A stretch of DNA of 64,000 nucleotides, taken from NCBI RefSeq assembly GCF_030013595.1, contig NZ_CP122768.1; one strand, 5' to 3'. The position numbers and the translations under genes are program-made. The DNA is from Escherichia coli. Lineage in GTDB: Bacteria; Pseudomonadota; Gammaproteobacteria; Enterobacterales; Enterobacteriaceae. The notes beneath the pieces were generated by a model, which did no database searches, was not told the DNA's origin, and saw only the letters and a list, made by a program, of their open reading frames with translations. Shown in pieces: positions 4,296 through 64,000 of the stretch; the first letter of the stretch is position 1; each line of letters opens with the position of its first letter.

Positions 4296-5483
4296 TTAGA
4301 ACTGGTAGACTAAGCCCACAGCTACGATATCATCGGTAGCGATGCCGTTTTCTTTGTAGAAGTCGTCGTCGTTGTCCAGCAGGTTGATTTTGTAATCAAC
4401 GTAGGTGGACATGTTTTTGTTGAAGTAGTAGGTCATACCAATATCAACATATTTAACCAGATCTTTGTTGGTGTAATGATGATTGCCCTGGCTGTCGAAG
4501 TTATCACTATTTACACCGCCTAAATCCTTACCTTTAGATTGCAGGTAAGCGATGGACGGGCGCAGACCGAAGTCGAACTGATACTGAGCAACCACTTCAA
4601 AGTTTTGGGTTTTGTTAGCGATCGCATCAGCATCACCGTAACCAGTCATGTTACGGGTTTCAGCATACATAGCTGCTAAGTAAACGTTATTAGCGTCGTA
4701 TTTAGCACCAACGGTCCATGCTTCTGCTGTTTCACCGCCAGCAGTTGCATCGAAGCGATCTCCATAACGAGTGTTATGAGTACCTTTGTGAACCTGATTG
4801 TCGGTACGGTCAGAGTTAGAGTAAGCAGCGCCCAGACTTAAACCAAAGTCAAAGTCATAGGAAGTGGACATACCGAAGCCGTCGCCGTTCTCTTTAGCTA
4901 ACTTACGGCCATTACCGTTACCAGAACCTTCCTGACCGAATAATCCATCATCTTCATTATTACCCTGATATTGCAGAGCAAAGTTCAGGCCATCGACCTG
5001 GCCAAAGAAGCCATTGTTACGGTAGGTTGCAACACCATTAGCACGACCGTTCATGAAGTTGTCGGCACCAGCATAGGTATCGCCACCAAATTCTGGCAGC
5101 ATATCGGTCCATGCTTCGATGTCATATACGACACCGTAGTTACGACCATAGTCGAAAGTACCATTCTGACCAAAGCCTAAACCTGCAAATGCCAGACGCG
5201 TTGCGGTATTACCTTTGTCGCTTTCAGGACCGTTTGCGCCAATGTTAAATTCCCACTGACCATAACCAGTGAATTGGTCAGCGATCTGAGTTTCACCTTT
5301 GAAACCGATACGGGCATATGACATGTCGCCATCGCTGCCAGCATCATCAGAGAAGTAGTGCAGGCCCGCTACTTTTCCGTACAAATCCAGTTTATTACCA
5401 TCTTTATTATAGACTTCAGCCGCATTTGCTGCGCCAGCAACTAATAACGCCGGGACCAGCATTGCCAGAACTTTTCTTTTCAT
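4296..5483 (-). CDS. yedS: OmpC/OmpF-family general porin (YedS-type), apparently intact
   Basis: ORF open to 5513; [21 protein letters not shown] at 5483 is a typical porin signal peptide. The protein is 16-strand-porin-like and ends ...VGLVYQF. Confidence 0.88.
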
Positions 5484-10165: not shown

Positions 10166-11083
10166 ATGCTTTTGGCCGGGAGTAGTTTACTGACGTTGCT
10201 CGATGATATCGCCACACTGCTGGACGATATTTCCGTGATGGGCAAACTGGCGGCGAAGAAAACCGCCGGTGTATTAGGGGATGACTTATCGCTCAATGCG
10301 CAACAAGTTTCAGGCGTGCGGGCCAACCGGGAACTTCCCGTGGTCTGGGGCGTGGCGAAAGGATCGCTGATCAATAAAGTGATTCTGGTGCCGCTGGCGC
10401 TGATCATCAGTGCGTTTATCCCGTGGGCGATTACGCCACTGTTGATGATTGGCGGCGCGTTTCTCTGCTTTGAAGGGGTAGAGAAAGTGCTGCATATGCT
10501 GGAGGCGCGTAAACATAAAGAAGATCCGGCGCAGAGTCAGCAACGTCTGGAGAAGCTGGCGGCGCAGGATCCGCTGAAGTTTGAAAAGGACAAAATAAAA
10601 GGGGCGATTCGTACCGATTTTATATTGTCTGCGGAAATTGTCGCCATCACGCTGGGGATTGTGGCCGAAGCGCCGTTGCTTAATCAGGTGCTGGTGCTTT
10701 CAGGCATCGCGCTGGTAGTGACCGTGGGCGTCTACGGTCTGGTAGGGGTTATCGTTAAGATTGATGACCTGGGGTATTGGCTGGCGGAAAAATCCAGCGC
10801 ACTGATGCAGGCATTAGGTAAAGGGTTATTGATCATTGCGCCCTGGCTGATGAAAGCGTTATCGATTGTCGGCACGCTGGCGATGTTCCTCGTCGGCGGT
10901 GGGATTGTGGTACATGGAATTGCGCCGCTGCATCACGCCATTGAACATTTCGCCGGGCAGCAAAGTGCAGTGGTGGCGATGATATTACCGACTGTTTTAA
11001 ATCTGATTCTTGGTTTTATCATCGGCGGCATCGTGGTGCTGGGAGTGAAAGCAGTAGCGAAAATGCGTGGTCAGGCACATTAA
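10166..11083 (+). CDS. yedI: DUF808 inner-membrane protein YedI
   Basis: 305 aa; N-terminus [23 protein letters not shown] recognised as YedI. Confidence 0.85.
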
Positions 11084-11513: not shown

Positions 11514-14038
<2,525 letters not shown>

Positions 14039-46349: not shown

Positions 46350-46425
<76 letters not shown>

Positions 46426-46479
46426 GTTTAAAAGGCATCGGCGTCAAGCGGATGTCTGGCTGAAAGGCCTGAAGAATTT

Positions 46480-46553
46480 GGCGCGTTAACAAAGCGGTTA
46501 TGTAGCGGATTGCAAATCCGTCTAGTCCGGTTCGACTCCGGAACGCGCCTCCA
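46480..46553 (+). tRNA. cysT: tRNA-Cys (anticodon GCA)
   Basis: 74-nt GGCGCGTTAACAAAGCGGTTATGTAGCGGATTGCAAATCCGTC...ACGCGCCTCCA. Confidence 0.97.
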
Positions 46554-46565
46554 CTTTCTTCCCGA

Positions 46566-46652
46566 GCCCGGATGGTGGAATCGGTAGACACAAGGGATTT
46601 AAAATCCCTCGGCGTTCGCGCTGTGCGGGTTCAAGTCCCGCTCCGGGTACCA
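46566..46652 (+). tRNA. leuZ: tRNA-Leu (anticodon TAA), class II with a long variable arm
   Basis: 87-nt GCCCGGATGGTGGAATCGGTAGACACAAGGGATTTAAAATCCCTCGGCGTTCGCGCTGTGCGGGTTCAAGTCCCGCTCCGGGTACCA. Confidence 0.97.
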
Positions 46653-46782: not shown

Positions 46783-47826
46783 TCATTTTCTCTGGCCACC
46801 AACTACGGGCACTACTTTAACTTTTCGGTCATATGCTGCTGTCTGTCGTGGGTTCTTATGCCCGGAAATTGCTTGCTTCTCTTCCAGGCTGCCTTCCAGA
46901 TCAGAGATACCTTTTGCTTTCAGATCATGAAATGTGAAGTCTATTTGCAGATGAGGATATTTTTCCTGTGCTGCCGCTTTGACATCACGCCAACGAGAGT
47001 TAAAACCATCACGGGTGTACTTGCCTCCGGTAGTTTGATGAATCACAAACAGGCTACTGATTCCCGGTTTTAATGGCAGAGAACGAGCCAGAGCTATCGC
47101 TTTCTGCAGACGAGGCGACCAGGCTTTGATTTGCTTAACGCCGGTTTTTCCCTGACGAATGTAGATCCCGGAATCGAACAGCTGGTCTTTCTGTAATGAA
47201 AGTACATCACTCTGTCTGGCCACACATAAGTAGGCAATCTCCATTGCCACGCGAACAACATCAGGAGACACTTCATAAACGGCCTGATATTCTTCATCCG
47301 TAATATAACGTTCGCGTGCTGTCTCTTTAAACTGCTTAACTCCCTGACAAGGATTCCTCTGGACATAACCTCGTTCATAACCCCAACGGAATACCCTGGA
47401 CATAAAGCTTTTTTCCCTATTTGCCTGAGTTCGGCTTGATAAACCGCGTTGATCCATATAGCGCCGAATATGTTCAGGTTTGATTTTATCCGGGTCGATC
47501 TTCCCGAAGACAGGCAGAACTTTTCCGGAATATTTTGTGTAGTCTTTCCTGGTTTCGACTGCCAAATCCATAAAATCAGGGGAGGTCATGAATTGTTCCG
47601 CGAGCGCCTGAAAAGTATTTCTTTCTTTTTCGTCACCGACCGCTTTTTCATATGCCAGCCATACGGCTGATCGTGGCGCATCCAATGCGCACAGGCGTAT
47701 CGCTTTGTTATCTTTATTCCTGAATTCGTAGGCCGCTTTGCCCTGGTAAACACGAGGCGGCATCCAGTTATCTGCTGGGTTCTTTCTCTTTCCGGCCATT
47801 AAATATTGCTCCAAAATCAGGTTCAT
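46783..47826 (-). CDS. int: Tyrosine-recombinase phage integrase
   Basis: 347 aa. The C-terminal catalytic region has R (CVARQSDV), HDLK and GH...Y (AISGHKNPRQTAAYDRK). It is adjacent to a tRNA locus. Confidence 0.9.
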   Translation of the reverse strand: MNLILEQYLMAGKRKNPADNWMPPRVYQGKAAYEFRNKDNKAIRLCALDAPRSAVWLAYEKAVGDEKERNTFQALAEQFMTSPDFMDLAVETRKDYTKYSGKVLPVFGKIDPDKIKPEHIRRYMDQRGLSSRTQANREKSFMSRVFRWGYERGYVQRNPCQGVKQFKETARERYITDEEYQAVYEVSPDVVRVAMEIAYLCVARQSDVLSLQKDQLFDSGIYIRQGKTGVKQIKAWSPRLQKAIALARSLPLKPGISSLFVIHQTTGGKYTRDGFNSRWRDVKAAAQEKYPHLQIDFTFHDLKAKGISDLEGSLEEKQAISGHKNPRQTAAYDRKVKVVPVVGGQRK

Positions 47827-54105: not shown

Positions 54106-55182
54106 ATGAGTCGTTTGCTGATTAACGAAAACCCCCTTCAGGTCCTGCCCACGTTGGCATGCACTATAGGGTTGAATGAAGCCATCGTTCTACAGCAAAT
54201 CCACTACTGGCTGAATTCATCTCAAAATTTCTTCGAAAATCGCCACTGGGTGTACAACAGTGTGACCGATTGGCAAGAACAATTCCCGTTCTGGAGCGAG
54301 TCGACAATAAAACGCGTGCTGGCCAATCTGGAAAAATTGAATGTGGTATTTACTGGGAACTTTAACAGTGATGCCTGGGATAAAACCAAGTGGTATTCAA
54401 TCAATTATGCCCAGTTATGTAAGATTGAAGAGACAACATTCCCTGTGGCCAATCGATTAGGTCAAGTTGACCCAATCGAAGAGGTCAATGTGACCCAAGC
54501 ATCAGGTCAAGTTGACCCATGCGCTAAGGTCAAAATGACCCAATCTCTTACAGAGAATACAACAGAGAGTACTACAGAGAGTACTACAGAGATAAAAGAT
54601 CCCCCTTACCCCCAAAAGGGGGAGGGCGAGGAAATCATTCTCGCTGACGCTCAAAAAGCTCTGAACTACTACAACGAGAAAGTCGGTACACGCTGCCGCG
54701 ACGTTAAACCGTTTGTCATGCTGCTGACTGCCACCACCACCCGCGCTGGTTACAGCGTGGCTGAGATTCAGTTAGTAATTCGTTGGGTTATTGCGACATG
54801 GCGCCGTCGTAGCGGAAGCGTGCCGAAACCTGCGAACATTTGCCGCGTAAACCGGTTTGACGGATATCTGGCTGACGCTGAGGCGTGGGCCACTGCTGAG
54901 GCTGCCGTTGACCCTGCTGAAGTTGTGAAGGGCTACAACGAGATTCTGGGCGACCTGCTACCTATAGCTGAAATTGATACTGACCGCCGTCGGGCAATCC
55001 TGCGCCTGCTGGCACATATGCGCACGCAAACTCTTGGCGCATTTATCGGCTACTTCGAAAAATTCCGCGATAACGCCCCAGACTTCTATTTCGGCGGCGA
55101 ATATCGCACCGGCTGGCGGGCAGGGTTTGATTACCTGATGAAGCCAGAAACACTGCGTAAAACCAGGGAAGGGGCATTATGA
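54106..55182 (+). CDS. Replication initiator / replisome organiser (lambda O-like role) containing the origin iterons
   Basis: MSRLLINENPLQVLPTLA... is an N-terminal winged-helix organiser-like region. The internal iterons and the position upstream of dnaB support the call. The listed ORF opens at 54070, but the ATG at 54106 follows the previous stop. Confidence 0.7.
   Translation: MSRLLINENPLQVLPTLACTIGLNEAIVLQQIHYWLNSSQNFFENRHWVYNSVTDWQEQFPFWSESTIKRVLANLEKLNVVFTGNFNSDAWDKTKWYSINYAQLCKIEETTFPVANRLGQVDPIEEVNVTQASGQVDPCAKVKMTQSLTENTTESTTESTTEIKDPPYPQKGEGEEIILADAQKALNYYNEKVGTRCRDVKPFVMLLTATTTRAGYSVAEIQLVIRWVIATWRRRSGSVPKPANICRVNRFDGYLADAEAWATAEAAVDPAEVVKGYNEILGDLLPIAEIDTDRRRAILRLLAHMRTQTLGAFIGYFEKFRDNAPDFYFGGEYRTGWRAGFDYLMKPETLRKTREGAL
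54460..54597 (+). repeat. ori-like array: four iterons GGTCAAnnTGACCCA at ~22-23 bp spacing, then four 12-bp tandem units
   Basis: Iterons lie at 54460, 54483, 54505 and 54528. The ACAGAGA(A/G)TAC(A/T) units span 54550..54597. Confidence 0.7.
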
Positions 55183-56570
55183 ATCCAGAAGAACTGGAAG
55201 CGATCGTTCTCGCTGGTCTGATTAACGGTGGCGCGACGCCTGACGCGTTTGATGTGATTGCCACTACTCCGGAGGAAGCCTTCAGCATCGTGTTTCACCG
55301 TCGCGCTTTCAGCGAAATCAAAAAGCAGGCACTGGCGAACGGCATGATCGACATGTTGTTTATCAGCGAAGCGCTGGGCGGTTCCAGCCTTGCGGATCTG
55401 TCTCAAATATCCCGGATCCCGGCAACGGTACCGAATCTGAAAGGCTATGCCGGGAAAATGGTGCGGGCATGGCGGAGCCGCAAAATGGCGGCATTGTTGC
55501 AATCTGGCGCGGATGGTATCCGTAACGCTGTAAACCAGAGTCAGCGTGATGAGGTTATTGAATCTCATGTTGCTCAGGTGCTGGATATGAGCGCCGCTAC
55601 CGGCACAGTCCAGCCGGTACACATCAAAGAGCTGTTACCGCTCTACATTGACACCGTTGATAAACGGATGTCTGGCGACGCGCAGGAAATGATGCTGAAA
55701 ACCGGAGTCGAGGATCTGGATGTCGCCCTGGGCGGTATCAACATGACCGACCTTGTTGTGGTTGCCGGTCGTCCAGGCATGGGGAAAACGGAATTTACCC
55801 TGAAGATTATCGATGGCGTTACCGCAGATGGCGGCGGCGCACTGTTTTTCAGCATGGAAATGGGCGCTCAGCAGATTGTTGAACGTACCGTTGCCGGGGC
55901 TGGGAATATGTCCACGTCGCGTCTGCGTAATCCAAAAGAAATGGACGATGAGGATTTGACCAGATTAACCGCCGCGCTTGCAATCATGCAGGATCGCGAT
56001 ATCTGGATTGTTGATGCCACTGATTTGACGATTGAGCAGATCCGCGCCATTGCAGAGACTCATAAACGCCGTTATCCGCACCTGAAGTTGATTGGTGTTG
56101 ATTACATGGGCCTGATCAAAAAACCGAAGGCCGAGCGCCACGATCTCGCTGTCGGGCATATCTCCCGCAACATGAAGACTATGGCCATGCGTCTGCATAC
56201 CCCTGTTTTTGCTCTTAGCCAGCTTTCCCGCCAGGTGGATTCTCGACCTGCTGGCCAGCGTCGCCCGGTGATGTCGGACCTGCGCGATTCCGGCAGTGTT
56301 GAGCAGGACGCTGACAGCATTTTGTTTTTGTACCGCGATGAAGTTTACACACCTGATTCACCTGCAAAGGGTATCGCCGAGGTGATTATCGGTAAAAACC
56401 GTTCTGGCGGGGCAGGTGAAATTATTTATCAGGAATTCCGGAATGGGCATTTCCTGCCAATTGATCAACACGTAGCACGCGAAAAATTACGCATCCAGAA
56501 GGAGGCAGAGCAACCGAGAAAACGTGAAAAACGGTATTCAAACAAAAACTTTAATACGGACCCATTTTAA
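55179..56570 (+). CDS. DnaB-family replicative helicase
   Basis: 463 aa with Walker A (GRPGMGKTEF), Walker B (IGVDYMGLI), ALSQLSR and DLRDSGSVEQDAD motifs. Confidence 0.92.
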   Translation: MNPEELEAIVLAGLINGGATPDAFDVIATTPEEAFSIVFHRRAFSEIKKQALANGMIDMLFISEALGGSSLADLSQISRIPATVPNLKGYAGKMVRAWRSRKMAALLQSGADGIRNAVNQSQRDEVIESHVAQVLDMSAATGTVQPVHIKELLPLYIDTVDKRMSGDAQEMMLKTGVEDLDVALGGINMTDLVVVAGRPGMGKTEFTLKIIDGVTADGGGALFFSMEMGAQQIVERTVAGAGNMSTSRLRNPKEMDDEDLTRLTAALAIMQDRDIWIVDATDLTIEQIRAIAETHKRRYPHLKLIGVDYMGLIKKPKAERHDLAVGHISRNMKTMAMRLHTPVFALSQLSRQVDSRPAGQRRPVMSDLRDSGSVEQDADSILFLYRDEVYTPDSPAKGIAEVIIGKNRSGGAGEIIYQEFRNGHFLPIDQHVAREKLRIQKEAEQPRKREKRYSNKNFNTDPF

Positions 56571-56608
56571 CCACGCATGACCAGCGTGAAATAACCGAGG
56601 AAAGACCA

Positions 56609-57019
56609 ATGACCACCATTTCAGGCAAATTAGAGTACCCGTCGGACAAAGGACACATAGACGACGGTAAAAACTATCTCGACGTCATTTTGTGGAATAT
56701 GAACGCCGGGCCACGTGCGCGCACTCGTGCGGTTTTTGTACCAAGACCCAAAGCAGGCAATTTTTCAACACCAGCTCAGCCTGCCCGTCAGGCATCCGTA
56801 GCCGCAGCGCCAGCAGTGAAATGTAAGGGTAAAACGCACATCGGGATCGCGATTCGCAGAAATGGTGAGCGGCAAGTGAAACTCCACGAAACAGCGACAA
56901 CCTGGTGTGCTTCACCGCATGAAACTTACGACAAGATAACCGGGCAGCGCATTGGTGCGCCTGGTCGCTGTCGCCTGCTGTTGAGCTCCATCACTCCGAT
57001 AGAAAAGAAAGGGGCGTGA
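56609..57019 (+). CDS. Hypothetical phage protein (136 aa)
   Basis: Conserved RBS ACCGAGGAAAGACCAATG; no recognisable domain. Confidence 0.55.
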   Translation: MTTISGKLEYPSDKGHIDDGKNYLDVILWNMNAGPRARTRAVFVPRPKAGNFSTPAQPARQASVAAAPAVKCKGKTHIGIAIRRNGERQVKLHETATTWCASPHETYDKITGQRIGAPGRCRLLLSSITPIEKKGA

Positions 57020-57020
57020 T

Positions 57021-57257
57021 ATGACCGGGCAATCAGATTACCTGCCGCCCGGCTTACCACACAACCGCGCCAAATGGCCCCAGGAATACCAGCTTAAAGA
57101 GCACTACGACATGCGAGCGGCGGCGCTGATCCGCCAACTCTTTGAGAAACGTATTCCGAGGGGAAGCGTGATTGAGCAAATCGGAATGACGCCGGATACA
57201 TACCGGGAATTTTTCAGAGAGCGTCTGAACTACTGGAGAGGGGTGATGGAACAATGA
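57021..57257 (+). CDS. Hypothetical phage protein (78 aa)
   Basis: Tightly packed with its neighbours, starting 1 nt after the previous stop. Confidence 0.5.
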   Translation: MTGQSDYLPPGLPHNRAKWPQEYQLKEHYDMRAAALIRQLFEKRIPRGSVIEQIGMTPDTYREFFRERLNYWRGVMEQ

Positions 57258-57949: not shown

Positions 57950-58207
57950 ATGCAGACTCAATTAAAGGTTAAAGGCGGTTATAGTCATTTTTTCTTCGCC
58001 AATATTGAAGTCTCACAAAGAGAGTCAAATGGCGGTTTGGTTGTCGTTAGGGATGTTAATATACCTATTACAACAACAACTCTCTCTCTGTTAGAGAATT
58101 ACGCTGTAGGGCAGGTGTTGACGTTAGAACAAAAGAATGGCGATTTTTTTGATGTGTATTACGTTGGAACTGATGGGAATAACTTTCAGTTTTCAACGCA
58201 CTGCTAA
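57950..58207 (+). CDS. Hypothetical phage protein (85 aa); its 3' end is duplicated at 63183
   Basis: AAGGAG lies 6 nt upstream of the ATG. A stem-loop AAGGCCCTG-TGAG-CAGGGCCTT (58214..58235) follows. Confidence 0.55.
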   Translation: MQTQLKVKGGYSHFFFANIEVSQRESNGGLVVVRDVNIPITTTTLSLLENYAVGQVLTLEQKNGDFFDVYYVGTDGNNFQFSTHC

Positions 58208-58354
58208 TTTATCAAGGCCCTGTGAGCAGGGCCTTCGAAAGCCTACTAAAGTCTGTTTCATAGAGAGAGTTATTTGCGATTAAAAAGGTATTTGGTCACG
58301 ACCAGCACGATAGAGAATACATCTTTCAAAGTACCGCCCATATAAAACAGTTAC
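58115..58354 (+). repeat. Left copy of a ~240-bp imperfect direct repeat bracketing the accessory cassette
   Basis: Aligns along its whole length with 63183..63418, roughly four-fifths identical by eye, e.g. CTAAAGTCTGTTTCATAGAGAGAGTTA and AAAAAGGTATTTGGTCACGACCA. Confidence 0.85.
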
Positions 58355-58649
58355 ATATGCACTTGATGACTAAGCTGGCACCAGGTTAACACCATGCGCC
58401 AGCTTGAAGGAGACTTCAGTTATTGGTTTCTGAGGAAAGCGATTCTTGAAAGGGTCATTTGCGTCTGGCAGTCGACCATTTTCTTGACTTCAGCATCTGT
58501 TCCTTTCTTGACTTCAGCATCTGTTCCCTGCATTGAAACTTTACCGCACATAGCATCCTTAGTTTTGATCCACTGGCGCTGAGAAGGCAGCAACTTGAAC
58601 CGCCCCGGAAATCCTGGAGACTAAACTCCCTGAGAAAGAGGTAAACAGG

Positions 58650-58976
58650 ATGACTAAAAATACTCGTTTTTCCCCCGAAGTCCGTCAGCGGGCGATTCGT
58701 ATGGTTCTGGAAAGTCAGGATGAATATGACTCACAGTGGGCGGCAATTTGTTCCATTGCCCCAAAGATTGGCTGTACGCCGGAGACTCTGCGTGTCTGGG
58801 TTCGCCAGCATGAGCGGGATACCGGGGGCGGTGATGGTGGGCTCACCAGCGCTGAACGTCAGCGTCTGAAAGAGCTGGAACGTGAAAATCGTGAACTGCG
58901 CCGCAGTAACGATATCCTTCGCCAGGCTTCCGCTTATTTTGCGAAGGCGGAGTTCGACCGCCTCTGGAAAAAATGA
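58650..58976 (+). CDS. IS629 OrfA (HTH transposase N-terminal part)
   Basis: 108 aa, [33 protein letters not shown]..., recognised as IS629/IS1203 OrfA. An A-run (GGAAAAAATG) sits at its end for -1 frameshifting. Confidence 0.92.
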
Positions 58977-59863
58977 TGCCACTGCTGGATAAGCTGCGTG
59001 AGCAGTACGGGGTCGGACCGGTATGTAGCGAACTGCATATTGCCCCGTCAACGTATTACCATTGTCAGCAACAGCGACATCATCCGGATAAACGCAGTGC
59101 CCGTGCGCAGCACGATGACTGGCTGAAGAAAGAGATACAGCGCGTATACGATGAAAATCACCAGGTATACGGTGTGCGTAAAGTCTGGCGTCAGTTGTTA
59201 CGGGAAGGTATCAGAGTGGCCAGATGCACTGTGGCACGTCTCATGGCAGTTATGGGACTTGCCGGTGTTCTCCGGGGTAAAAAGGTCCGCACTACCGTCA
59301 GCCGGAAAGCCGTTGCCGCAGGCGACCGCGTAAACCGTCAGTTCGTGGCAGAACGACCTGACCAGCTGTGGGTGGCTGATTTTACTTACGTCAGCACATG
59401 GCAGGGCTTCGTCTATGTGGCGTTTATCATTGATGTGTTTGCCGGATACATCGTGGGGTGGCGGGTCTCATCGTCTATGGAAACGACATTCGTGCTGGAT
59501 GCGCTGGAGCAGGCGTTGTGGGCCCGTCGTCCGTCTGGCACCATCCATCACAGCGATAAAGGCTCTCAGTATGTGTCACTGGCCTATACGGAGCGACTAA
59601 AAGAAGCCGGATTACTGGCATCAACAGGGAGTACAGGCGACTCGTATGACAACGCGATGGCTGAGAGCATCAATGGTCTTTACAAAGCGGAGGTAATACA
59701 CCGTAAGAGCTGGAAAAAACGTGCAGAAGTGGAACTGGCCACACTAACGTGGGTGGACTGGTATAACAATCGACGATTGCTGGGAAGGCTGGGCCATACT
59801 CCTCCGGCAGAAGCAGAAAAAGCTTATTATGCTTCCATCGGAAACGATGATCTGGCAGCCTGA
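58973..59863 (+). CDS. IS629 OrfB (DDE catalytic domain)
   Basis: 296 aa with the DDE motif context (WVADFTYV..., HSDKGSQY..., [10 protein letters not shown]). Confidence 0.92.
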
Positions 59864-61436
59864 GTTCACAGATAAAACACTCTCCAGGAAACCCGGGGCG
59901 GTTCAACTCTTTTTTCTTCGCCGGGGTTAACTTGCTCCAGACGGTATTCAAATCAGAGTCAGCATTTGCAAATGCCATTCGGGACTGATCAAGGCTTTCA
60001 GATTTTTGCGGCTGAAGTTGTGCCTGCCTCTCTTTTTGCTTCTCCGCCTCATACCTGGCCTGTTCCTGTGCCCTGAGTTGCACCTGTTGTTCCGCTTCAA
60101 TTTGACTCTGTTGGGCATCCTTAGCCTGCTGGATTTTCTGCTGCTCAACGATCGGGTTGATAATGGAAAGCGATGTCAGTAAAGCGGCGCCCACTGATAT
60201 CGGATTATCAGAAGAGGTTTTTACAAAAACGTTTTTCTGATCGTCGGTCGCCTGCACGGTGTAGGTGATACGCCTTGAAAAGGCGTTTGCGTTGTTCTCC
60301 AAAAACAGATTTTCCATTTGCTTATCGAGATTACGATTAAAATTCTTTCTGTAAGCATCTGAAAGCTGGACGTACTCGTTCGCAGGTAGAGTCATCGTCA
60401 CGGTCCCTTCACAAGTTTTCATTGTGCTGCCCGTGTCACTTGATGTTGTGGAGATTTCAGAGACGGCTAGTTTGATCTTGTCCAGTGTGCTTCGTTTGGT
60501 CTGATTAGTGACATCAGGGTATTTATCGACCTGTTCAGAGAGTCCTTCATAAGCAGATTTTTTTAATAAATCCATGAGAGCTGATTGGGTCATTTCCGAA
60601 GAACAACCGATCTCATCTTTTTTGTTATCACAGCCTGTAAGGGCAATGGCGAGTAAGAGTACTGAGTATTTTAATCTCATGAATTCCCTTTAGAGTAAGG
60701 ATTGGTTTTTAAGACGCGGTCTGTAATCAGTTCCGAGAGCTACAGTAAACAACGCTGAGCACTGAACGCATCACAGGCAAGGTAAAAGGTGATATCGGCA
60801 AAGGCTGTGAAACCTTTAATTCAACAGATGGGAACGGTATGCACAGGATCCTGTAACGACGCTCCCAAAACTGGAAACCTGTAAGGCATGTTTTCGCTGC
60901 TGAACTTAATATACGAACCTGCACTATCATGAACATATTTTATATCGTTATACCCCGAGTGATTGTGCCCGGCAATGGATAGTGTCCTGGAGGAATTATT
61001 TCTAATGTAAAAGGAAGATATTTAATTTCGATGTGGGATTATTACCTGTCTATAAGAACAATGACTTTATCTGGCAGTAAGCAGACATCTATTAGCTTAC
61101 TGAAGGGGGGCTGTGATTTGACCATTAACGGCATGAGATATATTGTCTATTGGTGATTGTTCTGAGGCCGATATCACGTTAACGACCAAGTAAAATAACA
61201 TGAAAAATTATTTATTAATGATTGCCAGCATTAAATGTAGTGATACCTCATTAGCAGGGTGCTCCGCAATGACTGCGATGAACTAAAAAATCAGTCATAA
61301 CCATGAAAAAAACAAGTGTATCAGCGAAATTAAATCTGGTGAAAGCATTTAATTACTTGTTAATGACGCAATAAAAACATACTATGGAAATGTAACAGCT
61401 AATCTACAGTTCTTGTCAATAGGGGCGCACAAGAAA

Positions 61437-62027
61437 ATGTTAAATGAATTTAAGGAAAAGCTACTATCCGACGATATCCGCGATGTCTACCAACGATACC
61501 TTTTAGGACATGACATCTGGTATTTTCGGGAACAAAAAAAATCAATAACCTTTGCTAAAGATTATGATGAGTTTAAGCTATATATGTCTAAGAAGCTTGA
61601 AATTCATGTAAATAATATTGCAATTGTTGGAAGTGCTAAGATGGGATTCAGCTTGAGCCCTGATAAAAATTATCGAACATTTAACGATGAGTCAGATATA
61701 GACTTGGTTTTAGTATCCGACAGAATTTATAAATCTTCCTGGATGGCATTTATTGAATTACAATCAAAGAATTATTTGCCTGTATATGCTCCTGTAGCTA
61801 AAAATATTTTCAAAGGATTCGTGTCATTGAAGGAGTTAGATATTAGAGTCGATTTTTTTAATAAATGGTCCCGTAACGTTGAACCATTAAAAAAAGACAT
61901 TCAAACTATTTTTGGAATACCTAACGACATCAACTACAGAATTTATGACTCTTGGGAGTCCGTTGAACGCTATCACATAGCTGGGTTGAATAGTCTAAAA
62001 GATAAGTTACAAGGACAATTGATATGA
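61437..62027 (+). CDS. Putative Pol-beta-superfamily nucleotidyltransferase-fold protein (196 aa from ATG 61437; ORF open from TTG 61413)
   Basis: IAIVGSAKMGFSLSPDKNYRTFNDESDIDLVLVS shows a G-S...D-x-D arrangement. The gene is AT-rich, and its stop overlaps the next start (ATGA at 62024). Confidence 0.55.
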   Translation: MLNEFKEKLLSDDIRDVYQRYLLGHDIWYFREQKKSITFAKDYDEFKLYMSKKLEIHVNNIAIVGSAKMGFSLSPDKNYRTFNDESDIDLVLVSDRIYKSSWMAFIELQSKNYLPVYAPVAKNIFKGFVSLKELDIRVDFFNKWSRNVEPLKKDIQTIFGIPNDINYRIYDSWESVERYHIAGLNSLKDKLQGQLI

Positions 62028-63082
62028 GAGCTATTGATCTAATTAAAGTTGAATCGAAAGACATTAAATGGTTGACGGATAATTTGAAATCAGGTGTTAT
62101 TACAGTTGATAATTCATATCAGAGAAAATATATCTGGCAGCAAAAAGACCAAGTGGCCTTAATTGAGACAATATTAATTGGCTACCCAATCCCTGAGATT
62201 TACCTTTGGGCAAATAATACTGATCCTGACACTGGAGATACTAAATATTCAATTGTAGATGGACAGCAAAGGCTAACCACAATCCAGCGATATTTAAATG
62301 ATGAGTTTAAGTTAAGCAAAGCAGCTATAGATGATAAAGAAGCCGACTATAGTGGGAAAATTTTTTCAGAATTGTCGGCAGATAACAAACGTGATTTTTG
62401 GCGATACCAATTCTCATCCAGATTTATTAATGAATCATTGAGATATGATGAGATTGCAAAGTTATTTTTACGTCTAAATAGAACAAATACTACGTTAAAT
62501 CCTCAAGAACTTCGTAATGCTGAATTTAATGGCGAGTTTTTAAGATTAGCCGAAGAAATTGCACAAAATGAATTTTGGGATAATTATAAGATATTTACTC
62601 AGTCAGATATCCGTCGGATGCAAGACATTCAATTCATCAGCACATTATTGATTTTCTTACGAATGGGTATTGAGCAGGATAATACACAAAAATCAATTAA
62701 TCGAGTGTATGATCAATACAATGAGAATTACCCTGAGGCGACTGAGGACAGAATTATCTTTAACGAAGTGTTAAGGATCATATCTCAAATTATCAACAAT
62801 AAACAAGTATTAGAATCAGTTGTAAAGAAAAAAGGCCATTTGTATTTTATATTTGTGCTGGCATACTATTATTTACAGCTTAGTAAATCTAAGCTTGTTG
62901 ATATGAATGTTATTAGTTCAAAGCTCGAGGATTTTTTTAATATTTATGAGTTAAATGAACAAGATAACCCCCATCCACTGGTTGAGGAATATAGATTCCT
63001 CAGCCAAGAGGGTTCAAAGAAGAGTCATAACAGACAGCGTAGATTTGATATTTTGAAAGAATTTTGCTCTTTACATGATTAA
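62024..63082 (+). CDS. Stand-alone DUF262 (ParB/GmrS-like) protein, 352 aa, without a visible DUF1524/HNH module
   Basis: The N-terminal motifs YQRKYIWQQKDQVALIETILIGYPIPEIYLW and SIVDGQQRLTTIQRYL are the DUF262 signature. Confidence 0.7.
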   Translation: MRAIDLIKVESKDIKWLTDNLKSGVITVDNSYQRKYIWQQKDQVALIETILIGYPIPEIYLWANNTDPDTGDTKYSIVDGQQRLTTIQRYLNDEFKLSKAAIDDKEADYSGKIFSELSADNKRDFWRYQFSSRFINESLRYDEIAKLFLRLNRTNTTLNPQELRNAEFNGEFLRLAEEIAQNEFWDNYKIFTQSDIRRMQDIQFISTLLIFLRMGIEQDNTQKSINRVYDQYNENYPEATEDRIIFNEVLRIISQIINNKQVLESVVKKKGHLYFIFVLAYYYLQLSKSKLVDMNVISSKLEDFFNIYELNEQDNPHPLVEEYRFLSQEGSKKSHNRQRRFDILKEFCSLHD

Positions 63083-63093
63083 ATGACGAAAGT

Positions 63094-63124
63094 GGGTTGT
63101 TTATAAGAATTGAATAAACAACCC
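63094..63124 (+). terminator. Stem-loop terminator after the two-gene operon
   Basis: GGGTTGTTTAT-(9 nt)-ATAAACAACCC followed by ATCATTTTA, a weak T tract. Confidence 0.55.
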
Positions 63125-63182
63125 ATCATTTTAATGTACTCTGAATCCTCTCATTCTTAGTGAAATATTGTTTTTAGAACAC

Positions 63183-63418
63183 GTATTGACGTTAGAACAA
63201 AAAATAGATTTTTTTGTGATGTATTACGTTGGAGTTGATGGGATAATTATATGTTTTCAATACATTGTTAATTTATCAAGACCCTGCGACTAAGGTGTTC
63301 GAAAATCGACTAAAGTCTGTTTCATAGAGAGAGTTACTTGCGTTTAAAAAGGTATTTGGTCACGACCAACACGAGGCCGAATACCTCAGTTTAAGTACCG
63401 CTCATGTACAACAGTAAC
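63183..63418 (+). repeat. Right, decayed copy of the ~240-bp direct repeat
   Basis: It includes a degenerate copy of the last ~30 codons of the 57950..58207 ORF (LTLEQK...YYVG.DG) and its downstream region. Confidence 0.85.
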
Positions 63419-63603
63419 GTTTGCTGATAGTGTCGCATTATCTTGCAGAGGACGCAGGTTAAATAGAACAAGCATATGTACCTGGTTTTTGTAATATTGG
63501 GTATAACATATGCTTTATAGGAGCGCGCTCAATGACCAACCGAGAAAGAATCTCCTGACAGATACAGTTATTTTCACCCTCTCCATAACATAAGGGAGTT
63601 TTT

Positions 63604-64000
63604 ATGTCGGAAGTGAGTATCGTAGAAGACGCCCCACGCCCAGTAGTCGCCGAATTGGCAGATCTGTTACAAGCACAACCATTTCATCAGAATCAATATG
63701 ATAACTTATGTCGCTTTATGATTTATTTTTCCCTGGCTGAATCAAAGTTAACATCAATGGCTGCTGGCCTTGGTAGAACTGACGCACTGGCACAGGAACT
63801 GGTTGTGCATAACGGCATGGACAGTCAGACCATAGATGATTGCTATCGTTATTTTATACGACGCTATCGAGACAGCCCTGATAGCGATTACCGCTTCAAT
63901 AAACTGGCCCCGCCTGAGTATGTTAAGAATGCAATCAGAGAACGCTTTGTTACGCTACTTCAGATACAGTCTCCAACAATTGAAGATAAAATCAGCTTTG
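63604..64000 (+). CDS. Hypothetical phage protein, 5' part (open to the window edge)
   Basis: ATG at 63604 lies 7 nt after AAGGGAG, with no stop through 64000. The product begins MSEVSIVEDAPRPVVAELADLLQAQPF... It is absent from the ORF track because it is unterminated. Confidence 0.55.
   Translation, partial: MSEVSIVEDAPRPVVAELADLLQAQPFHQNQYDNLCRFMIYFSLAESKLTSMAAGLGRTDALAQELVVHNGMDSQTIDDCYRYFIRRYRDSPDSDYRFNKLAPPEYVKNAIRERFVTLLQIQSPTIEDKISF

Follow-up and report, generated by a model that had tools for sequence, protein, structure and literature searches.

Do the direct repeats that bracket a block of accessory genes in a prophage record the arrival of those genes, or are they the remains of something older that now serves in their exchange? 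The question is raised by a stretch of 64,000 nucleotides of Escherichia coli DNA (NCBI RefSeq GCF_030013595.1, contig NZ_CP122768.1), which we refer to as the window and in whose positions coordinates are given unless a related locus (L001, L002 and so on) is named. An initial annotation had noticed ~240-bp imperfect direct repeats, roughly four-fifths identical, on either side of a 5-kb cassette in the nin-type region of a prophage, and had proposed that the cassette entered, or is exchanged, by recombination and left a partial duplication. Comparison of the two copies with each other and with their counterparts in related prophages makes it quite probable that the repeat is a recombination scar serving as a substrate for homologous exchange at a hypervariable accessory/defence slot.

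Anatomy of the repeat

The similarity that had been judged by eye is significant. MAFFT aligned 58115-58354 with 63183-63418 over their whole length at the cost of two gaps, of 3 bases and 1 base, and blastn matched 58112-58360 to 63180-63424 at 80.7% identity over 249 columns (E 4e-60), a value that also rejects chance similarity. A repeat search resolved three in-register blocks, spaced by 5064-5068 bases and spanning 58107-58360 and 63175-63424:

58107-58134 matched to 63175-63202: block 1
58142-58178 matched to 63207-63243: block 2
58176-58360 matched to 63240-63424: block 3

The longest identical blocks, of 28 bp (58245-58272 = 63309-63336) and 25 bp (58280-58304 = 63344-63368), are both contained in a 60-bp core at 58245-58304; each occurs twice in the window and in none of 100 shuffles. 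The inner sides of the two copies are unrelated in sequence. Judged against relatives, the right relic starts at ~63144 (equivalent to ~58073-58084), and the duplicated unit is therefore nearer 290 bases.

Translation in both directions revealed what the repeat is made of. The unit is the fossil of a convergent gene junction. It opens with the 3' end of a plus-strand gene for an 85-amino-acid (aa) protein (part e); then come a hairpin and, on the minus strand, the end of a gene for a 201-aa protein (part r), represented by its stop codon and the ~27 codons before it:

57950-58207, plus strand: intact 85-aa gene, an open reading frame (ORF) whose last ~32 codons (58112-58207) form e of the left copy
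58214-58235, no strand: left hairpin, GC-rich, AAGGCCCTG-TGAG-CAGGGCCTT (-17 kcal/mol, z -3.6)
58270-58360, minus strand: left relic r-L, stop codon 58270-58272 plus the last ~27 codons of the 201-aa gene, with blast boundaries
63144-63275, plus strand: right relic e-prime (e'), decayed 3' part of a copy of the 85-aa gene with frame shifts and stop codons, its boundary at 63144 set against the L017 and ST131 (sequence type 131) copies
63278-63299, no strand: right hairpin relic, degraded, AAGACCCTGCGACTAAGGTGTT (-4.1 kcal/mol, z -0.3)
63334-63424, minus strand: right relic r-R, stop codon 63334-63336 plus ~27 terminal codons of the 201-aa gene, interrupted by a stop

Read on the plus strand, both copies yield C-terminal residues of the 85-aa protein. 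Minus-strand translation gives LFYMGGTLKDVFSIVLVVTKYLFNRK for the left copy and LLLYMSGT, a stop and TEVFGLVLVVTKYLFKRK for the right; both end in a stop codon, and both align with LQLYMGGTLTEVFGLVLVVTKYLFKRK, the stop-terminated C-terminus encoded by an intact 201-aa gene (L002 10705..11310), which in related prophages of ST131 type adjoins an ImmA/IrrE (Peptidase_M78) gene. At neither copy does the window retain the body of the 201-aa gene. Homology of r-L and r-R to the intact gene is lost within a few bases of a common point, and the two share a few further bases with each other, which argues for one truncated ancestor copy rather than two independent truncations. The segment that comprises the untranslated region (UTR) and proximal r is conserved between the copies at 62/68 positions, as compared to ~74% for the remainder of the repeat.

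The left copy had been described as the last ~30 codons of the 85-aa ORF, its stem-loop and ~120 bp beyond, and the first two elements were found as stated. The length of the third was also right (~125 bases), but it is not a featureless spacer, since it holds the end of the 201-aa gene. The account of the right copy as decayed and non-coding with a degraded stem-loop is borne out as well: three-frame translation reveals a frame broken by 3-base and 1-base deletions and by stop codons, and the relic of the hairpin hardly folds.

The 85-aa gene itself is real, with 21 clusters of homologues that are nearly all 85 aa long, reach down to 53% identity and occur in prophages of E. coli, E. albertii, Klebsiella (in a different neighbourhood) and Raoultella; the protein has no match in Pfam, PADLOC or NCBIfam. 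Neither strand of the left hairpin is followed by a U-run and an intrinsic-terminator scan makes no call there, yet the element may act as a bidirectional 3'-end element. Hairpins of relatives keep the stem with other sequence (ST131_R, -14.1 kcal/mol; L023_R, AAGACC...GGTCTT). The degraded right hairpin of the window matches the L023_R variant, which still pairs AAGACC with GGTCTT, at 32/33 positions.

Two trivial origins of the pair were set aside. A dispersed repeat of the repetitive extragenic palindromic (REP) or miniature inverted-repeat transposable element (MITE) kind was rejected, as the window holds two copies of the unit and each genome at most three places with it, always in this prophage region and never on plasmids. 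Assembly error was rejected because independent assemblies have the identical arrangement: L010 is 100% identical to the window after removal of the insertion sequence (IS) IS629, and the arrangement is also present in L001, L013, L026-L028 and L033-L034, with L029 and L036-L037 ending before or beginning after one of the repeat copies.

Traces of exchange and the origin of the duplication

An empty site exists in E. coli JNE151685 (L007) and GCA_013159505 (L012); this configuration occurs in one of 5426 complete E. coli genomes. Here the 85-aa gene, preceded by a 74-aa gene, is followed by a single copy of the unit and by genes for 182-aa and 226-aa proteins, and the LprI and nucleotidyltransferase (NTase)/DUF262 genes that lie between the copies in the window are lacking (58.3-63.3 kb missing). 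The left flank agrees with that of the window at 98.1% identity over 6 kb, the right flank at 94.6%. Relatives thus do not always hold both copies with the same content, and the interval between the copies is a repeat-bounded presence/absence polymorphism, as expected of the variable insertion slot that had been proposed.

The single copy at the empty site is a hybrid. At informative sites it is of left type at 47/47 positions and then of right type at 43/44 (Fisher p 2e-25), and the switch of parentage falls at ~58253-58273, inside the core that holds the longest identical blocks. Through e and the hairpin the L007 copy agrees with the left copy of the window at 131/131 positions, and from distal r onward with the right copy at 94/95; distal r and the downstream sequence of the window's right copy match L007 at 51/51 and 43/44, respectively. 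The right copy of the window is in turn a three-part mosaic of an L023_R-like hairpin (32/33), a UTR and proximal r of L005_R/L023_R type, and an L007-like distal part. The left relic of L017 is of window type save for a run of sites of intact-gene type in r, a conversion patch. An exact-pattern scan of IMG/VR returned eight loci, which contributed a single reassortant (L039) and a single further cargo (L045). In L039 a left side of ORF6N type and the 3' part of LprI (87%) are joined to window-type sequence (99.6%), with the breakpoint inside LprI and the window-type part running through the cargo and the right copy.

The outer limits of the relics vary. The left edge of the right relic lies at the equivalent of 58062 in ST131, L014, L017 and L045, at ~58082 in the window, at 58202 in L023, at 58245 in L005 and at 58251 in L006; the borders are not fixed, and an edge that differs among cargo types points to erosion by separate joints rather than to a fixed site. 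The four cargos with the edge at 58062 share ~85 further upstream bases, including a small hairpin (GTCCGC...GCGGAC). This stretch (L002 ~10425-10503, L014 ~12640-12717, L017 ~13960-14038, L045 ~4695-4772) is faintly similar to the middle of the 85-aa gene, and the relic may therefore be a nearly full-length decayed copy. Varying edges together with a common upstream flank argue for both erosion by non-homologous joints and exchange of cargos that were already joined to a shared flank.

The hybrid copy of L007/L012, the L017 patch, the mosaic right copy, L039 and the right flank shared by four cargos favour a history of homologous exchange at the repeat. The ancestor would have carried the 85-aa gene, the hairpin and then, on the opposite strand, the 201-aa gene with ImmA/IrrE. 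ST131-type, L014/L015 and L045 loci, where the 85-aa gene has decayed to a relic but the hairpin is present and the 201-aa gene with its ImmA/IrrE partner is still intact, appear to be one step from it. Recombination between related phage genomes would have left two partial e-hairpin-r copies in the nin-equivalent region, the left one still ending a working 85-aa gene and the right one a pure relic. The copies would have no dedicated function and would be passive patches of diverged homology, in whose 60-bp core host or phage homologous recombination (HR) among co-resident or co-infecting relatives could cross over. Through such crossovers the LprI module, the 2-kb AT-rich NTase-like/NsnA-like moron and the downstream genes (201-aa/ImmA versus 182-aa/226-aa) would be gained, lost or reshuffled. 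Mosaics of lambdoid phages are known to carry 'HR traces' of ~80% identity along their borders, and a divergence of 12-17% is tolerated by phage recombinases (PMC3945230). In this scheme the make-up of the unit, the empty site with its hybrid copy, the many other cargos and the mosaic and conversion patterns within the unit are observed; the intact ancestor, the sequence of events and the recombinase at work are inferred.

Several observations weigh against it. No relative was found in which the 85-aa and 201-aa genes are both intact and adjacent, and the intact 85-aa, hairpin and 201-aa junction was not found in the E. coli, E. albertii and Klebsiella contexts reached via 85-aa homologues; the ancestor therefore stays inferred. 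The 30-60-bp switch zone of L007 has substitutions of its own, partly of ST131_R type, hence L007 did not arise from a window-type genome by simple deletion. Exchange between the window's own copies, with 80% identity and identical blocks of 25-28 bp, would be inefficient. A Pfam scan of ten prophage ORFs (the remaining prophage extends outside the window) recovered an integrase, Gp157, helix-turn-helix repressors and YdaT, and no Rad52-like recombinase of the Rad52, RecT or Erf families. Cargo is accompanied by a single copy in L008 and L011, and the shifts in the left edge of the right relic reveal that joints without homology had a part in shaping the locus as well.

Some of these points are what one would expect if non-homologous joints had made the copies, the copies had played no later role and the empty-site prophages were the ancestral state: independent illegitimate joints predict a left edge that differs by cargo (58062 to 58251), cargo beside one copy in L008 and L011 causes no difficulty, and neither do the private substitutions in the L007 switch zone. 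A scar of this kind does not account for the L007/L012 copy changing parentage exactly in the conserved core, for the L017_L conversion patch and the three-part mosaic of the window's right copy, or for one right flank common to four unrelated cargos, and homology-driven exchange at diverged borders has been shown experimentally in lambdoid phages (PMC3945230). We regard a pure scar as unlikely.

Alternatively, both copies could be selected as functional non-coding elements, be they insulators, 3'-end elements or a small RNA. The far better conservation of the UTR and proximal r (62/68 versus ~74%) agrees with selection, as does pairing that is kept in some relatives despite changes on both arms (AAGGCC/GGCCTT versus AAGACC/GGTCTT). 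However, the right hairpin has decayed (-4.1 kcal/mol, z -0.3), Rfam at E<=1 has no match in the repeat and, over 56.5-64 kb, none but the ALIL pseudoknot of IS629, and no canonical terminator or promoter is called in the core. The promoter scan gave no promoter-like site in the left copy or the conserved core; the sole match within either copy (9/12, minus strand) falls in the decayed e' part of the right copy. The core coincides with stop-proximal codons of the 201-aa gene, and its high identity is explained by mosaic ancestry because the right-copy core is of L005_R/L023_R type. Selection for such a function is thus distinctly improbable.

Did entry of the cassette make the duplication, as the initial annotation supposed? 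This could have happened, for instance, by a Campbell-type crossover of a circle with ~250-290 bp of homology or as a long target duplication at a staggered cut. Direct repeats in like orientation bracket the insert, a single-copy empty site exists, and a single crossover predicts reciprocal hybrids, which the left/right hybrid at the empty site resembles. Yet a recent duplication should yield near-identical copies, and the copies are 20% diverged, as compared to 131/131 and 94/95 positions at which their outer halves agree with the relative that has the empty site. Other cargos, too, are flanked by right copies of this type: the L023_R hairpin (32/33) stands beside a different cargo and an intact 201-aa gene, and two-copy architectures also surround unrelated cargos in L014/L015 and ST131, with L045 likewise having a right copy of this type. 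LprI and the left relic are common to relatives with other cargo, and the interval between the copies encodes no integrase or excisionase. The data lean to left and right copies that diverged before the cargo was acquired, and the duplication appears to be older than the present cargo given the 20% divergence and the L023_R-type hairpin next to other cargo. We consider duplication upon entry very improbable.

Finally, it is hardly credible that the copies mark a cargo-bearing, site-specific mobile element, whether as attL/attR-like sites or as transposon ends: direct repeats do bound a presence/absence polymorphism and the slot does attract mobile DNA (several IS in relatives), but the unit is built of recognisable gene fragments, measures 250-290 bp with 20% divergence and edges that vary from 58062 to 58251 instead of having short, near-identical, fixed ends, is confined to this prophage region (<=3 places per genome, never plasmids), and encloses as its sole transposase that of IS629, which has its own ends and is absent from the otherwise identical L010. 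A recombinase that acts on the core was not seen, nor was the unit at the borders of the cargo elsewhere in a genome.

The slot, its cargo and its neighbourhood

If the repeat is an exchange substrate, what has been exchanged? The interval between the copies and its right-hand neighbour contain the following features:

58420-60680, minus strand: LprI-family lipoprotein gene, split by IS629 into 58420-58595 and 59906-60680
58596-59905, plus strand: IS629 (IS3 family), 1310 bp, with 26-bp inverted repeats of its own, target duplication of 3 bp (ACT)
61117-63143, plus strand: variable cargo module
61118-61146: promoter-like site, TTGACC-17-TATTGT (9/12), in a region with fewer such sites than its shuffles
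61413 or 61437 to 62027, plus strand: NTase-like gene, ~196-aa protein (196 or 204 aa)
62024-63082, plus strand: NsnA-like ParB-DUF262 gene, 352-aa protein, overlapping the NTase-like gene
63092-63126: terminator-like hairpin with a 13-bp stem (-16 kcal/mol, z -3.7), then CAUUUUAAU, a U-run
63604-64000, plus strand: start of the 182-aa gene, which runs off the window (the L001 coding sequence 12628..13176 maps from 63604)

Everything between the copies had been taken as cargo. This holds for 61117-63143 and not for LprI, which most relatives retain: in all other relatives with LprI, identity to the window is 95-97% over r-L and LprI up to 61076-61116, whatever follows, and homology is lost there. 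The exchanged unit in the window is thus 61117-63143 and not the whole 5 kb. Its GC content (31-34% over 61000-63200) differs from that of the replication genes (52-55% in 55000-57200), and the window's cargo is found in two of 5426 complete E. coli genomes.

The 352-aa protein matches NsnA in PADLOC (4e-41, profile positions 48-379 of 385) and GmrSD_N in Pfam (1e-24), and its motifs QRKYIW, DGQQR and FLRLN fit the QRxxxW, DGxQR and FxxxN of ParB-DUF262 sensors. Its NTase-like partner has ~100 clusters of homologues of ~196 aa, from Enterobacteriaceae and Vibrio to Bacteroidota, and no match in PADLOC, Pfam (E<=10) or NCBIfam; a sequence search of the PDB gave noise. A single-sequence AlphaFold model was unusable (predicted local distance difference test score, pLDDT, 36), whereas an AF2 (AlphaFold2) model built from 34 homologues reached a pLDDT of 90.9, and Foldseek found nothing significant for it in the PDB. 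In the family alignment, tested for the motif G-S ... D-x-D, G65, S86, D87 and D89 are invariant and S66 nearly so. The same overlapping pair is present in a Yersinia enterocolitica prophage, at a P2-type hotspot between gpA and the portal gene where it adjoins a PvuRts1I-like gene and HicB, and on a Pontibacter chromosome. The pair may reasonably be viewed as a mobile two-gene module and a defence candidate; no description of such an NTase-like/DUF262 module was found in the literature searched.

Between the 74-aa gene and a block of 77-aa(-), DUF1367, YbcO and Q genes, where (-) marks the minus strand, relatives display at least 11 architectures, in agreement with the expectation that related prophages carry other cargo or, as in L007 and L012, none. 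Besides the arrangements of the window and the empty site these include:

ORF6N, r, LprI, 232 aa, e', hairpin, 201 aa/ImmA: ST131 type, with matches in ~400 of 5426 complete genomes
ORF6N, r, LprI, GIY-YIG set, 201 aa/ImmA
ORF6N, r, LprI, 266 aa(-), transposase relic, 201 aa/ImmA
85 aa, unit, LprI, 455 aa(-)
85 aa, unit, LprI, 186 aa(-)/HNH_2(-)/GIY-YIG(-), then DUF2971/EMARD_N genes or a 329-aa gene
85 aa, unit, LprI, 339 aa, 201 aa/ImmA
85 aa, unit, LprI 3' remnant, GIY-YIG(-)/251 aa/DUF6650(-)/125 aa, e', hairpin, 201 aa/ImmA
450 aa: L045, from IMG/VR

The NTase/NsnA cargo joined to 201-aa/ImmA, a hypothetical parent, occurred in none of 24 contigs. Profile matches of defence type in the slot are NsnA-like (4e-41), CapP (2e-25, ImmA/IrrE) and RTasTM (2e-5); other cargos match GIY-YIG, HNH_2, DUF2971 and EMARD_N, and several have no match. 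The RTasTM match, a weak PADLOC match to the transmembrane partner of a defence reverse transcriptase, belongs to the ST131 232-aa cargo (L002 9544-10242). ST131-type loci have an ORF6N-domain gene in place of the 85-aa gene. The prophage family is present in ~8% of complete E. coli genomes, mostly ST131. Megablast against INPHARED matched IS629 alone, which means that no sequenced phage there has this region at ~85% identity or more.

The intact LprI allele of L001 matches Pfam LprI at 2e-8, and once 58596-59908 is cut out of the window, a 315-aa ORF with the lipobox LTGC reappears. Within the coding region, the perfect 24-bp tandem duplication at 58480-58527 repeats GTDAEVKK and explains the 315-aa LprI of the window, L001 and L010 versus 307 aa in most relatives. 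IS629, recognised by its ALIL frameshift pseudoknot (RF01497, 119 bits) and 98.9% identity to annotated copies of the element, inserted later and independently and is no part of the repeat system. Its position within LprI is peculiar to this window. The AT-rich slot draws other IS elements, and near-identical relatives have independent insertions (L001 10873-12201; L013 9513-10721 and 13271-14499; L028 10578-11791; L016 8498-9666). Among those in relatives are an IS3-family element placed precisely on the right relic's left edge (equivalent to 63178-63184 of the window), a DDE_Tnp_1 IS between LprI and the NTase-like gene and an IS3-family element inside the 85-aa gene; in L016 the prophage is truncated by an IS.

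The prophage adjoins a tRNA-Gly/Cys/Leu cluster (46350-46652; glyW-cysT-leuZ), next to which lies its tyrosine integrase (46783-47826). Upstream of the locus are the replicative helicase (55179-56570) and four small conserved genes, and beyond the end of the window relatives continue with 77-aa(-), ~210-222-aa, 59-aa, DUF1367, YbcO/DUF1364, Q and holin genes. Gene order hence places the locus in the nin-equivalent region, between the replicative helicase and DUF1367/YbcO/Q, as had been assigned. The 182-aa and 226-aa genes occupy the place of the 201-aa/ImmA-IrrE pair of other relatives. This minus-strand pair (L002 10705-11808) encodes a 201-aa protein with a hydrophobic C-terminus, for which no family match was found, and the ImmA/IrrE metallopeptidase (PADLOC CapP, 2e-25); it is common to many relatives and replaced in the window from 63425 onward. 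In E. coli S42 (L004) the integrase of a related prophage adjoins tRNA-Ser near mtfA, so the prophage family uses more than one attachment site.

Relation to known systems

The 2-kb module resembles a moron in the sense of the lambdoid concept of Juhala and Hendrix (PMC3594210). It is extra DNA between two genes of a collinear backbone, missing in close relatives, and has a deviant base composition (31-34% GC), what may be promoter and terminator signals of its own and genes that are apparently irrelevant to the lytic cycle. Presence or absence in collinear relatives and deviant composition, by which morons are recognised, were both found. The slot differs in that it is nested and composite (LprI, variable and alternative downstream modules), and in that duplicated relics of neighbouring genes bracket it, which lies outside the moron definition.

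Its borders resemble those of mosaics formed by relaxed HR (De Paepe et al. 2014, PMC3945230; Martinsohn et al. 2008), where stretches of ~80% identity edge the exchanged segments, junctions are hybrid, and defective as well as active lambdoid E. coli prophages take part. In the locus analysed here, the flanking identity is 80.7% and the switch of parentage occurs within the homologous stretch. Unlike in those mosaics, the diverged homology forms a direct repeat inside one genome, and can therefore also mediate deletion.

A fixed position with many alternative gene sets, here at least 11 architectures, is also the hallmark of hotspots in P2-like prophages and P4-like satellites (Rousset et al. 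2022, PMC9122126), which carry known and candidate defence genes, the Yersinia P2 hotspot having an NTase-like/DUF262 pair. The present slot is of lambdoid type and nin-equivalent, does not lie beside cos, has duplicated gene-end relics at its borders and holds cargos that are candidates for defence. Among the ParB-DUF262 defence systems (Menshen NsnABC, GmrSD, SspE, PD-T4-2, Dazbog; Li et al. 2025, PMC12065111), the closest likeness is to NsnA, whose profile is covered over nearly its full length. The window's cargo lacks the ABC-ATPase NsnB, NsnC and the DUF1524 nuclease domain, and has the ~196-aa NTase-like partner upstream; without NsnB or NsnC beside the NsnA-like gene it is not a Menshen system.

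The hotspot and its fossil borders seem to be undescribed in the searchable literature, and nothing about the locus seems unexpected; the current understanding of phage mosaicism is unchanged by it. It adds an example, at the level of sequence, of accessory and defence gene turnover in temperate phages in which a variable slot is bordered by fossilised gene ends from its own neighbourhood. To mine the family for candidate defence genes, searches can be anchored in the 74-aa and 85-aa genes at the left side and in the e-hairpin-r unit and the 77-aa(-)/DUF1367 block at the right. The locus also offers a testable substrate for recombination between diverged repeats and a conserved two-gene DUF262 module as a candidate for phage defence. 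Tentatively, one may go further and view the slot as the lambdoid counterpart of the P2/P4 hotspots, with the homology of the relics shuffling defence cargo, and the NTase-like and NsnA-like genes as an anti-phage system of two genes, so far without a name, that travels between lambdoid and P2 hotspots and extends to Bacteroidota. In its parts, the locus joins three known things, the moron, the prophage hotspot and the mosaic borders of relaxed HR, and as a whole it is typical lambdoid mosaicism.

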